Assembly: GCF_057098645.1 (NCBI RefSeq)
Contig: NZ_CM169472.1
Reading direction: 5' to 3' (one strand)
Length of the DNA: 64,000 bases
Made by a program: the position numbers. Below are positions 6,001 to 15,000 of the stretch, piece after piece. Position 1 is the first letter of the stretch, and the number at the start of each line of letters is the position of its first letter.

Positions 6001-9000
6001 ATTACCAGGCGGGAAAACGATCGGTGCGATTACTGATTTCCTTATGAAAAACGGTTGAGTGTTTGCCGCGTCCTGGAGTTCCTTACTTAACCCCAGGACT
6101 TTTTTTTATGCCGAGAATAATCGAATTACGCCAGCAGAAAACCGCCATTAAAAATCAGATGCGCGACATGCTGGAGAACGCGGAAAAAGAAAACCGCAGC
6201 CTTAACGATGCAGAGGGCGCAAAATTTGACGAATTACGCGCTAAAGCTGAATCCCTCGATAAAGACATTTCCCGCCTTGAAGCCATTGCAGACGAAGAGC
6301 GCAGCAAGCCAGGTAAAAGCAGTCAGACCACTGACCCCGCAGAACTCCGCAACTACATTCTGACAGGTGAAACCCGCGCATTAAGTACAGGCGTTCCCGC
6401 TGATGGTGGTTATACCGTTATCCCTGAACTGAACACCGAAATCATGCGAATGCTGGCGGATGAATCCACCATGCGCCGCATCTGTACCGTGAAGAAAATC
6501 AGCAGCAACGAGTTTAAGCAGCTTGTTTCCGCTGGCGGTGCGACCGTTAACCACGGTGAAGAGGGTAAGGCACGCGAACAGACCAGCACCCCGCAGATTA
6601 ACGAGGTGAGCATCAAGCTGTATCCGGTCTATGCGTACCCGCGCACCACACAGGAAATCGTGGATTTTTCCGATGTGGACATCCTTTCATGGCTGACGGG
6701 TGAGATTGGCGACACCTTCACGGAAACCGAAGAAAGCGATCTGGTTGTGGGCGACGGTGACAAAAAAGCAAAAGGTTTTTTATCCGTACCCCGTGCAGAG
6801 AAGAACGACAAAGAGCGTGATTTTGGTACGTTGCAGGTAATTAAACCTTCCGAATCTCTGGCGTGGACATCTGCGGACCCGCTGATCGACCTGAAATTTG
6901 CATTACGTAAAAAATACCGCAAAAACGCGGTCTGGGTGGTTAACTCCACGACGGCGGCAAAACTTCAGAAGGTGAAGAACGCGAACGGTGATTATATCTG
7001 GCGCGACCGTTTACAGGCGGGTGATCCTGATACGTTGCTGGGCCTTCCGGTCGAATATCTGGAGTTTATGCCTGATAACGTTATTGCCCTGGGTGACTTC
7101 AAACGCGGTTACTACATTGTTGATCACGAAACAGGTGTTCGCACCAGACCGGACAACCTGACAGAACCAGGATTCATCAAAATTTTCACGCAAAAATATT
7201 TAGGCGGTGGCGTGGTGGATTCGAACGCGATCAAGATTCTGGAACTGCCGGAAGACGACGATTAACAGCATACAGAAGGGGCTTAAAAGCCCCTTTAGTG
7301 TTTTATGGGTGAAAAAATTATGAAGAGTATGGAAATCCGGTCATCGGAAATCACCACCAGCGCCAGCAACACGCTTACAGGCTACGTTGTTCGCTGGGAT
7401 AACCTTTCTGATCTGCTATGGGGTGAGTTTTACGAAAAATTCCAGCGGGGAGCGTTTACTGAATGGCTTGCGGCGGGTAATGACGTTCGCGGCCTGTATG
7501 AGCATGACCACAGCATGTTACTGGGGCGCACCCGTTCCGGCACGCTGAAACTGGAAGAGGACGAAACAGGGTTACGCTTTGAACTGACCCCACCGGATAC
7601 CAGTACAGGGCGCGACGTTATCGAACTGGTTAAGCGTGGGGACATCTCGGGGATGAGCTTTGGCTTTCGCTCCCGTAAGGATGTATGGGATACCACAACA
7701 GATCCATGCGTGCGCACCGTGCTGGTGGCGGAACTGTACGAAATTACCGTTACATCGGTACCGGCTTACCCCGATTCCGGCGTGGAGCTGGCCCGCCGTT
7801 CCCTGTATGAGCAGCACCCCGAAAAAATGCCGCGTGCGGATAATCGCCGCTGGTGGGCGGATTTAGCGGGGGTGTGATATGTGGCCTTTCAGAAGAAAAA
7901 AAGAGCAGCGCAGCATGACGCTTGATGAGTTTATGGCGCTGGCTGGCACATCGAACACGGGGGCGGGTGAGTACGTATCATCGGGGACAGCGGAATCACT
8001 GCCCGCCGTCATGAACGCCGTCACGGTCATCTCTGAGGCGGTGGCTACCATGCCGTGTTACCTGTACCTGGTACGCAATGAGAAGGGGAAGGAGGCCCGA
8101 GAGTGGCTTGATTCTCATCCGGTCGATCACATCCTCAACGAGCGCCCGAACGCGTGGCAGACTCCCTACCAGTTTAAGCGAATGATGATCCGCCACTGCC
8201 TGTTAAACGGTAATGCTTATGCGGTGATTCAGTGGGGGCGTGATGGTTTTCCGGTGGCTTTACATCCTTACCCGCCGCAGTCGGTGAACGTGGAGCAGAC
8301 AGGCGAACACAACTGGCGCTACTGCATCACTGACGCCTACACCGGAAACACCCGCAACTATTTACCGTGGGAGGTTCTCCACCTTCGTTACTCCACGGAT
8401 GACGGTTTTATGGGGCGCTCACCTGTAACCATCTGCCGCGAATCGCTGGGGCTTGGGCTGGCCCAACAACGCCACGGCGCGAGCGTGATGCGTGATGGCA
8501 TGATGGCGGCAGGGGTTATCACGTCAGGCGAATGGCTGGACGGCGTGAAGGGCAAACAGGCATTAGCCGCACTGGAACGCTACAAAGGGGCCAGAAACGC
8601 CGGAAAAACGCCCATCCTTGAAGGGGGTATGAGCTATCAGCAGCTGGGCATGAGTAATCAGGATGCTGAATGGCTGGCCTCCCGTCGCTTCACCATTGAA
8701 GACATCGCCCGAATGTTCAACGTCTCGCCGATTTTTTTGCAGGAATACAGCAACAGCACCTACAGCAATTTCAGCGAGGCAAGCCGCGCATTTCTCACCA
8801 TGACGATGCGCCCGTGGCTGGCGAACTTTGAGCAGCAGATAAAAAACGCCCTGCTGGTGGCCTCGCCTGTACCTGGTATCCGGTATCAGGTGGAGTTTGA
8901 CAGCGCGGACCTGTTACGGGCCACACCTGGCGAACGCTTTGCCACCTATGAACGCGGCATCAAATCCGGCGTTATGTGCCCGAACGAAGCCCGCGAACGT

Positions 9001-12000: not shown

Positions 12001-15000
12001 AACGCCTGGCGACTGCATTGATTACGACCGGATCAGAGATGACATCATGCAGGACGCGGAGAAATTTAATATCAGGCTGGTGGGCTTTGATACGTGGAAC
12101 GCCACGCATCTCAGAACGCAATTACAGGGGGCAGGTTTTGAGGTGGAGCCGTTCCCGCAAACCTACCTCAGATTCAGTCCGGCGGCGAAATCGTTCGAAG
12201 TTTTTGTTAACCGCAGGGTGATTGTGCATCGTGGCGATCCGGTGTTGTCCTGGTCGATGAGTAACGTCGTGATGCAGAGTGACGCGAACGCCAATATCAA
12301 GCCGAACAAGAAAAAATCACCGAACAAGATAGACCCGAGCGTGGCGGCGCTGATGGCGTTTGGTACATTCCAGGCAGAGCATGAGGATTTTGCTTTTGAT
12401 ATAAGCGACAGCCACCGCCAGAAACTGGAAGAATTTAGCGGGGTGTAATGAGGTCAGCAGCATGACAGAAGCCGAAATAACGGGATTAATCCGCCGCGTT
12501 GCCGGAATCAGCCAGCAGGCTGACGAACAGGCCACGCAGCCGGACAGCGTGACAGCCGAAAACTATGCGCGTGTTGTTGCTGAGGTGATGCGCCGTGATG
12601 GTATAGAACTTAATGGCGTGGATATGCGCAACATACGAACCAGAGTTCTTTAGTTGCTGGCCTACCGTCGCCGCGTGGAGATGTATCGGGAGAAGGAGAA
12701 AATAACGTACCACTGGAAGAAGCCGGAGCGGTTGCGGCGGTAACTGGTTGATATTCCCGACGGCCCAAAAATGGGTTGGCTACACCCCTCACAACTACGA
12801 CATTTTCGCAGTTTAATTAATGGTCAGCTTAATCGCTAACCCGCTGATATTTTAGGAAACCTCAATTTGAGGAAGTCGGCGCGGTAACTTGCTGAACTTT
12901 AAGCAAAGCGCAAAATTGCGCTTGCTGAATAATCATTATGATTACGCAGATGATTAAGGAATGACCGAAGGCGGAAATTCGCCTGTGGTTAATGGGGGAG
13001 TTGCAGATCTGCAACTCGACCATGAAACTACGGAAACTACCCGTAGTTTGGGTAGTAAGAGTAACACCCAGATTTTGGGGCTTACTCGTGATACCCAAAT
13101 TTGGGGTATCGGTGGCAACCATAACGACTTTCGTTACGGTTGATGCTTTTACCCCATTGGGGGAAAGGTATTACGATAATCATAACACCTACCGAACAGG
13201 TAAAGCCCACCAGCCTGATTAACGTTTAACCGGAAAAAAATTCCGGTAGGTGGGGATCCCCATATAGACATTAACGCCCCTCATGAATTGGTGTGCTTCC
13301 CCCTGGAAAGATGATCCGCCTGTATATTTCTTGTGTCTATTTGTTCCACGTTGTTTCATACAGTGCACCGAACGGTGTAGTCACTGGTGTAGTCATTTTG
13401 CGATTTTTGGCACTTTTTGTGGTGTTAATTATTTAATTAAATCAATGTGTTATGCGAAATAAGTTATATATAACAGCAATAAATAATGCGAGAATAAACG
13501 GCACGATGATCTCGGCGGCAAAACGGATACCGCAGAGAATAATGACCAGCATTCCCAACATAATGACGATTTTTAGGCCATTGAGCGTGATGATCGGCTT
13601 TGCCATGCTTGTCCCCGTTTTTTCTTCCTTTGCTAATAATAATGTCTTTTTCGCTCCGTCATCATAACGAAAATCAAACCGCTCAGGTAAAGAAGTGAAA
13701 ATATTTTGAGTTAATTCTTAAGCTATGATACAAATCAGGCGTGTTCAACTACCGAGGACAATTATCATCCGCGATGACGAGAAGCAACACTGCGGATAAT
13801 TGTAATATTATGGACAATTTGTTCAGGACGTTATTTTCTACATTTACCCATCTTCGTACCTCATCCACTATCTTGCTCGTAGGTGAGCAGCACTGGCGCA
13901 ACGCGCTTTAGTCCTTTCTTCTGCCAAAGCTTGCGCTAAGCGCGGGGCTTGACCACTTTACTTTGGTTTCGCTGAATTAAGCGAAAATTAAAATAATTCT
14001 CTTGCAGGAGAAGGACAATGTATATTTATTGGATTTTATTAGGTCTGGCTATTGCTACAGAAATTACCGGTACGCTGTCCATGAAATGGGCGAGCGTCAG
14101 TGAGGGAAATGGCGGTTTTATTTTAATGCTGGTGATGATTTCTCTGTCGTATATATTTCTCTCTTTCGCCGTTAAAAAAATCGCCTTAGGCGTAGCTTAT
14201 GCGCTGTGGGAAGGTATCGGTATTTTATTTATTACCTTGTTTAGCGTTTTGTTATTCGACGAAAGTTTATCGCTGATGAAAATTGCCGGGTTAACCACCC
14301 TGGTCGCCGGGATTGTGTTGATAAAATCAGGTACCCGTAAAGCGCGTAAACCTGAACTGGAGGTGAACCATGGCACAGTTTGAATGGGTTCACGCCGCCT
14401 GGCTGGCATTGGCAATCGTGCTGGAAATCGTTGCTAACGTCTTTTTGAAATTTTCTGACGGCTTTCGTCGCAAAATATTTGGCTTGCTCTCCCTGGCGGC
14501 GGTGCTGGCTGCCTTTAGTGCGCTTTCTCAGGCCGTTAAAGGGATCGACTTGTCTGTCGCTTATGCATTGTGGGGCGGGTTTGGTATTGCCGCCACGTTA
14601 GCCGCAGGTTGGATCTTGTTTGGTCAACGGTTAAATCGTAAAGGCTGGATTGGCCTGGTCTTGCTGTTGGCTGGAATGATCATGGTGAAACTTGCCTGAT
14701 GAAGACGCTGCCCGCGCTGTCGGGCAGCGTTTGAACATTATTTTTGCGACAGTTGATCCAGCTTGTCGCGAAAACCGGTAACAGAAATGGCCCGGTTATC
14801 GGCGCGCCAGCGATCTTTCGCGGCAGGAGCCGAACTTTGCACCCCAATTAATTGCCAGCCGTCATCGGTATGCAACATCAGAGGCGAACCGCTGTCACCC
14901 GGCAAGGTATCGCACTGATGTGACATCACCGACGTTTGCGCCCAGCCAGTCACTTCACAGTTTTGATGACTGTACAACGTATCGAGATGATCTTCAGGGT

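Follow-up and report, generated by a model that had tools for sequence, protein, structure and literature searches.

A capsid-first packaging operon in an island inserted in tqsA of Escherichia coli has the gene organization of capsid-forming PICIs

The stretch of 64,000 nucleotides analysed here (contig NZ_CM169472.1, assembly GCF_057098645.1), hereafter the window, includes most of an island, about 14.5 kb in size, which interrupts the tqsA gene of Escherichia coli. Nine tightly packed open reading frames (ORFs), all full length and all on the plus strand, occupy positions 6108-12448, and run exactly from the start codon of a capsid gene to the stop codon of a large terminase gene, as given in the original prediction made on this DNA. 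The gene products are, in order, the major capsid protein, an S78 prohead protease, a portal protein, a head-closure protein, a gp6-like adaptor, an HNH endonuclease, a 60-aa polypeptide, and the small (TerS) and large (TerL) terminase subunits (Table 1). Eight of the nine ORFs have been unambiguously assigned by Pfam, with E-values spanning 1e-8 to 1e-91. All the genes named in the prediction have thus been found in the order proposed, and only the 60-aa ORF had been overlooked. The capsid ORF, called as 6063-7265, truly starts with the ATG at 6108, as it does in the element EcCIEDL933 and in PDB entry 9gyi, annotated as 'Major head protein', which matches the capsid protein at E=6e-255 with 3 differences over 385 aa (99% identity). 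EcCIEDL933, hosted by E. coli O157:H7 EDL933, is the prototype of phage-inducible chromosomal islands (PICIs) of the capsid-forming kind (cf-PICIs), and the operon here described very probably serves head assembly and DNA packaging in a cf-PICI of the same type.

The arrangement of the operon departs from the one found in HK97-like phages. The HK97 map, which agrees with the canonical order assumed in the prediction, features TerS, TerL, portal, protease, capsid, adaptor (Ad1), head closure (Hc1) and tail genes, HNH being the last gene and adjoining the cohesive end site (cos). SfIV has the same gene order. The head block precedes HNH in the island, and follows TerL in phages; in addition, portal-protease-capsid is permuted into capsid-protease-portal, and Ad1-Hc1 into Hc1-Ad1. 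The HNH-(cos)-TerS-TerL adjacency is maintained as in circularised HK97, and all the genes of the module are co-directional. The order described as inverted in the prediction hence corresponds to a reshuffled head block, and not to a DNA inversion. The terminase genes are located, as anticipated, at the distal end of the module, close to the att-proximal noncoding region: TerL is followed by a truncated small ORF, and then by about 800 bp with neither ORFs nor Rfam matches, up to the core of the attachment site attR. An Rfam scan of window positions 1-14100 gave no matches. HK97-like phages (HK97, SfIV, ST64B and YeP1) encode capsid, S78 protease, portal, Ad1, Hc1, HNH, TerS and TerL proteins of the same families, have HNH next to TerS across cos, and carry, as the window does, a terminator-like hairpin behind the capsid gene. 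Yet, they have genomes of 38-45 kb and tail genes behind Hc1, and their proteins are only about 30-40% identical.

To search for similar arrangements, capsid and portal tblastn matches were crossed over 50,697 phage records. The capsid gene is upstream of the portal gene in four of them, at identities of 58-82%. Three are satellite-sized records or fragments (LR881103, 16.5 kb; OR544139, 15.3 kb; OR850982, 3.8 kb), the fourth corresponds to the terminal 16 kb of PQ569648. The 21 bona fide phage records occurring in both lists (16.5-45 kb) all feature the portal-protease-capsid order, at identities not exceeding 40%. Similarly, the 48 IMG/VR loci with a capsid identity of at least 66% all keep the order capsid, protease, portal, Hc, Ad, HNH, TerS, TerL, as far as these genes are present on the contig, and 42 of the loci reside on contigs of at most 17.1 kb. 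Distant IMG/VR matches (26-33% identity, contigs of 36-57 kb) are organized as HNH, TerS, TerL, portal, protease, capsid. No tailed phage with a capsid-first order was found in any of the phage and IMG/VR records examined; the result seen in the prediction as adverse, namely the same order being common among tailed prophages, was not encountered. The capsid protein is 99% identical to that of EcCIEDL933, 58-70% to those of other satellite-sized elements, and at most 40% to those of phages; for TerL, values of 69-82% face values of at most 36% in phages. This gap was taken as unambiguous, and the grouping of capsid and TerL with cf-PICIs has been judged on it in place of a tree.

In proteobacterial cf-PICIs the order capsid-protease-portal-connectors, followed by hnh-terS-terL, is conserved (bioRxiv 10.1101/2022.09.08.507074). 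The order flagged in the window has therefore already been published as the mark of a known family; it is the conserved organization of proteobacterial cf-PICIs, not that of a rearranged prophage. The synteny comparison with phages and satellites sides with the prediction. That the island is no simple remnant of a standard prophage is in keeping with the satellite size and the identical gene order of its close relatives (capsid identity from 58% upwards among the phage records, and from 66% upwards in IMG/VR), and the distinct lineage surmised is real, true phages being at most about 40% identical and canonical in order. This lineage is already known, as it was described in 2022-2023 under the name of cf-PICIs, and experimentally characterised.

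Some relatives have been deposited as phages. vB_KppS-Ant (Escherichia phage, LR881103.1) and Pmp8 (Pasteurella phage, OR544139.1) share with the window element the module order and the satellite size (identities of 58-65% for capsid, 62-81% for portal, 69-81% for TerL), but differ in the host, in having primase-type replication genes, and in the divergent Hc/Ad proteins (38-62%). Besides the head/packaging module, both carry int, a regulator gene and a primase gene, a content which fits cf-PICIs. Neither hosts a tail module, a single coding sequence in each being labelled as tail protein (tape measure protein; tail terminator). In Klebsiella phage P12620-1 (PQ569648.1, 106.5 kb) the segment 90.6-106.5 kb resembles a cf-PICI, has TerS as its first gene, and was probably fused to the phage sequence by the assembly, and OR850982.1 is one more GenBank 'phage' record resembling or containing a cf-PICI. 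Modules may be variegated. In the IMG/VR loci L050, L053, L051 and L054-L056, as well as in L002 (LR881103.1), identity of Hc/Ad falls to 38-74% within modules otherwise 96-100% identical; one locus has a 69% capsid beside protease and portal at 96-97%, and several carry an HNH variant at 86-87%. The divergence of Hc/Ad and of this capsid denotes an exchange by cassettes, and agrees with the published idea that Hc and Ad set tail compatibility. Overall, 537 of the 5426 complete E. coli genomes contain the packaging module, and 409 do so at a coverage of at least 80%.

The early region of the island has the organization int-alpA-rep-SSB-PerC, and is not a lambdoid immunity region. Neither tail nor lysis families have been detected by Pfam and phrog scans of the island ORFs, among which no holin, endolysin or repressor module was found. 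The 165 aa encoded by positions 18-515 match the C-terminal end of the EcCIEDL933 integrase (409 aa). The family to which AlpA belongs is labelled 'excisionase and transcriptional regulator', and mutation of alpA abolishes both induction and transfer of EcCIEDL933 (bioRxiv 10.1101/2022.09.08.507074). The region downstream of alpA is variable. It hosts a small ORF on the minus strand, and an ORF in the equivalent region of the homologous tqsA island of MBT-5 is annotated as YlcI/YnfO family; a 389-aa ORF on the plus strand (1126-2295) was dismissed as spurious, having no family match, an odd composition, and the minus-strand ORF inside it. A DUF4222 domain (E=2e-23) is encoded by the last of the four small early ORFs, and the MBT-5 homologue of the replication protein is annotated as 'helicase RepA family protein'. 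PerC-like genes are common in Gram-negative PICIs; the one of EcCIMP1 represses the enterocyte effacement locus (LEE), those of EDL933 and CFT073 have no effect on LEE1 (PMC11773190). Classical Gram-negative PICIs (EcCICFT073, EcCIED1a, EcCIMP1) share the int-alpA-replication front end, a PerC-family gene and AlpA-mediated, helper-dependent induction, but encode no capsid, portal or TerL proteins, and redirect helper capsids instead. The sequence hallmarks of cf-PICIs are found together in the tqsA island: a PICI core, a complete head/packaging set in the expected order, no tail or lysis genes within a satellite-sized element, and the capsid/TerL identity gap. Nothing found contradicts the assignment.

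Table 1. Features of the tqsA island in the window
Feature	Position	Strand	Basis or remark	Identity to EcCIEDL933
Tyrosine integrase gene, 3' part	1-515	+	rest of the gene and attL beyond the left edge of the window	100% (C-terminus)
alpA, excisionase-like regulator, PICI induction switch	880-1068	+	phrog_2790, E=2.5e-17	100%
Small ORF, variable region downstream of alpA	1686-1883	-	phrog_949, E=1.9e-27	
Four small early ORFs	2285-2545, 2518-2739, 2741-2974, 2980-3279	+	phrog_5146/2512, phrog_24341, phrog_2196	
Replication protein, RepA-family helicase (AAA_25), 466 aa	3276-4676	+	PF13481, E=7.8e-44	
Hypothetical ORF	4878-5129	+	phrog_1231	88%
SSB	5126-5536	+	PF00436	98%
PerC-family regulator, directly upstream of the packaging operon	5547-5819	+	PF06069	89%
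Terminator-like hairpin dividing early genes from the packaging operon	5826-5843	+	single repeat copy	
Major capsid protein, HK97 fold, N-terminal scaffold/delta region	6108-7265	+	PF05065 Phage_capsid, E=1.8e-61	99.2%
Terminator-like hairpin directly 3' of the capsid gene	7275-7296	+	pattern scan only; 9-bp stem and T-run	
Prohead serine protease S78	7305-7877	+	PF04586 Peptidase_S78, E=6.6e-48	99.5%
Portal protein	7879-9090	+	PF04860 Phage_portal, E=9e-91	99.5%
Head-closure protein, Hc1 type	9087-9425	+	PF05521 Phage_HCP, E=5e-23	96.4%
gp6-like head-tail adaptor/connector, Ad1 type	9422-9718	+	PF05135 Phage_connect_1, E=1.9e-11	99.0%
HNH endonuclease, packaging accessory factor	9718-10158	+	PF01844, E=1.7e-8	98.6%
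60-aa ORF between HNH and TerS	10142-10324	+	phrog_3173, E=7.5e-37	100%
Putative cos region, G+C-rich tract GGGGTGGGGGGCGTTTTCAGGAC...	10325-10446	not assigned	inferred	
Small terminase TerS, P27/Terminase_4 family	10447-10803	+	PF05119, E=1.3e-23	100%
Large terminase TerL, ATPase and nuclease	10787-12448	+	PF03354, PF20441	98.7%
Small ORF after TerL, 63 aa	12462-12653	+	phrog_1561, positions 1-63 of 93 matched	
Tandem motif, two copies of GGTGTAGTCA	13374-13395	+	found in the MBT-5 homologue too, beside int at its opposite end	
attR core ATAACAGCA, right island boundary inside tqsA	13470-13478	not assigned	RM13514 comparison	

EcCIEDL933 (NZ_CP008957.1, about 1680329-1695600) and the window copy have the same gene order from int to TerL, and have in common DUF4222, SSB, PerC and the att-proximal right end; the protein identities of Table 1 refer to 1680329-1695000. 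The 60-aa ORF corresponds to WP_000174068.1 of EDL933, and, counting from the capsid gene (1786), its place is probably that of 'hypothetical gene 1792' in EcCIEDL933. Examined as a possible piece of EcCIEDL933, a 'phage' fragment of 1.6 kb, propagated on ATCC 43895, was rejected; it is only 76% similar, and belongs to a different cf-PICI lineage. The variable region behind alpA differs between the window copy and EcCIEDL933. The island found in tqsA of MBT-5 (NZ_CP058682.2), and similar E. coli copies, share with the window copy the attachment site, the RepA-type helicase and the packaging module. Window and MBT-5 DNAs are 98.3% identical at positions 5821-14500. In contrast, the int-alpA end (1-1266) is 98.5% identical to EDL933, and only 91% to MBT-5. 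In the parts compared (1-1266 versus 2016-14500), replicon and attachment site are MBT-5-like. EDL933 and MBT-5 integrases exhibit 37 differences, clustered in a stretch of 140 aa at the N-terminus that the window does not cover. Since the identities of the int-alpA end differ from those of the rest, the window copy is a mosaic of EDL933-type and MBT-5-type islands. Judging from these comparisons, it is a natural recombinant, in which int/alpA and packaging genes of the EDL933 type are associated with a RepA replicon and a tqsA site of the MBT-5 type.

The right boundary of the island could be set precisely. The tqsA gene is intact in the O145:H28 strain RM13514, and represents the empty attB; identity of this uninterrupted gene to the window begins exactly at the first residue of the attR core. 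The 9-mer ATAACAGCA is found also at attL, the left junction, of the MBT-5 island. As attL is located off the window, the size of the island (about 14.4-14.6 kb) has been inferred from the MBT-5 copy. Tandem decamers occur near both ends of these islands within a 76-nt imperfect direct repeat (2180-2255 and 16537-16612 in the compared locus L001, about 280-305 and 15520-15540 in the compared locus L007), as two copies of GGTGTAGTCA in the window and two copies of GGTGTAGTTAAT in EDL933, and are probably arm-type binding sites of the integrase. At the right of the island are the 5' end of tqsA, on the minus strand, and mdtJI. The adjacent 10 kb (window 14000-24000) are 100% identical to E. coli O145:H28 genomes with an intact tqsA. 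Past rspB, the interval 33580-41717 hosts apparently chromosomal ORFs, and a prophage integrase is found there in RM13514. Because both the tqsA island and the region past rspB differ, the source strain diverges from O145:H28 genomes at no fewer than two mobile-element sites.

The cos site most likely falls in the HNH-TerS gap. The linear record LR881103 starts 22 bp before TerS, and ends just past the small ORF adjacent to HNH. Its termini align to window positions 10335-10425, and cos has been placed in the gap because they fall inside it, and because HK97-type phages carry cos between HNH and TerS. The DNA of cf-PICIs has cohesive ends (cf-PICI paper). The hairpin found at the 3' end of the capsid gene has the sequence GAAGGGGCTT-AAAA-GCCCCTTT followed by a T-run, and a putative terminator is annotated in HK97 at the same relative place, just past the capsid gene. 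In the island the hairpin may work as an attenuator which sets the excess of capsid protein. No plus-strand promoter was found ahead of the capsid gene by a sigma-70 pattern scan; this outcome is compatible with activator-dependent expression, though it proves nothing. The capsid gene opening the operon and the hairpin behind it could together ensure the excess of capsid over protease, portal and terminase which a T=4 shell needs. If the order is functional, locating hnh-cos-terS-terL last would keep packaging functions the latest and the lowest expressed. Such speculation extends to the mosaic copy, whose helper range or regulation could differ from those of the prototype. Taken together, that the capsid-first order is functional rather than a historical accident, and that the recombinant behaves differently, are tentative ideas, both rather doubtful.

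How the element works can be proposed by analogy. Each packaging gene of EcCIEDL933 is needed for transfer; tails are supplied by the helper phage, whose own packaging genes can be mutated with no effect on cf-PICI transfer (bioRxiv 10.1101/2022.09.08.507074). EcCIEDL933 is induced via alpA by the helper phages HK106 and HK446; its heads are T=4 and measure about 47 nm, no DNA other than its own is packaged, and the adaptor/connector pair decides which tails fit. In view of identities of 96-100% and of genes left intact, the tqsA island is best explained by this very mechanism; the mechanism is carried over from the EcCIEDL933 experiments through protein identity, the window copy being known from its sequence. 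According to this view, a helper phage would switch on alpA, and the island would excise and replicate. The capsid protein, processed by the S78 protease around the portal of the island, would build small T=4 heads. The HNH-TerS-TerL complex of the island would cut at cos, and fill these heads with the island only, about 15 kb of DNA. Head-closure and adaptor proteins would finish the neck, and dock the heads to the tails of a siphovirus helper, such as HK106.

Several observations have to be set against this picture. The replication protein, a RepA-type helicase in the window, is in EcCIEDL933 a 710-aa DUF927 protein, and the two can be aligned over 122 aa only, at 69%. The prototype is inserted not in tqsA, but in the roxA-phoQ intergenic region, at the core GGACATATTT. 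A 354-bp segment found ahead of the capsid gene in EcCIEDL933 and MBT-5 is missing in the window. It carries a 74-aa ORF, the hypothetical WP_001132080.1, between PerC and capsid genes, and is bounded by two copies of the 24-nt hairpin repeat ACAGCCGGAG.AATCCGGCTTTTT, one of which is kept in the window (5821-5847, compared with 7484-7864 in L007 and 8684-9061 in L001). The difference looks like a loss, or a gain, mediated by the repeats. The ORF next to TerL, 93 aa long in EDL933 and MBT-5, is cut to 63 aa by a GAA to TAG change at codon 64, the reading frame running on past the stop to about 12743; mobility is not guaranteed. No defence cargo is found in the window copy in the accessory slot behind the packaging operon. 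Furthermore, the window stops short of attL and of 244 N-terminal residues of the integrase, so that the island is seen in part; neither the ORF list nor the flank annotation shows a helper prophage elsewhere in the window, and the position of cos was deduced from the ends of a database record. The differences from the prototype leave the identification as a cf-PICI unaffected. Nonsense codon, missing 74-aa ORF, off-window integrase end and attL, and lack of a helper in the window would also be expected of a genuine cf-PICI fixed and decaying in this host, and no longer mobilisable. This is unlikely, as capsid to TerL genes and alpA, all essential for EcCIEDL933 transfer, are intact, attR and the arm-type repeats are conserved, and both affected ORFs are outside the set of genes mutated in the cf-PICI paper.

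A prophage of the HK97 type would show the phage gene order with tail genes, lambdoid immunity, lysis functions and a size of 35-45 kb, and the island has none of these. It could still descend from such a prophage through internal rearrangement and the loss of regulatory, lysis and tail genes, and lack any independent life cycle. Membership of the proteins in HK97-type Pfam families, the generic phage-protein annotations given by RefSeq, and the truncated ORF and 354-bp segment absent with respect to relatives all agree with a defective prophage. Decay is hard to reconcile, however, with nine full-length packaging genes 96-100% identical to those of a functional element, and with a compact architecture maintained in the 409 E. 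coli genomes mentioned above, and in 15-16.5 kb records from Klebsiella, Salmonella and Pasteurella recovered from lysates. The front end is int-alpA-rep as in PICIs, the island ends cleanly and its attB is found empty in a sister genome, and the closest true phages do not exceed 40% identity. The hypothesis is thus highly improbable, and already largely refuted. Even less credible is that the island is a gene transfer agent (GTA)-like system, or an autonomous mini-phage, packaging DNA with no helper. Heads and terminase are indeed produced by the element itself, and among solved structures the major capsid protein of RcGTA (6tb9, E=1e-46) ranks second for the capsid, yet this match is far weaker than the cf-PICI one, and denotes only a distant structural relative. 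Gene content contradicts the hypothesis, as tail, baseplate and lysis genes are lacking, and integrase, att site, replication module and a cos-type terminase set, all owned by the island, set it apart from GTAs, in which head and tail genes come with no integrase, replication genes or packaging site, and random host DNA is packaged. In turn, EcCIEDL933 needs helper tails. The assignment to EcCIEDL933-type cf-PICIs is hence retained.

Nothing new is added by this analysis on how elements of the cf-PICI type work, and its main value lies in correct annotation. Genome pipelines give these genes generic 'phage' labels, and several cf-PICIs have been deposited as phages; the island can therefore be easily miscalled as a defective prophage. 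The chromosomal backbone in which it resides matches that of Shiga-toxigenic O145:H28 strains. Recognition of the island as a cf-PICI predicts that it builds its own small capsids, borrows tails from helper phages, and is possibly transferred between species.

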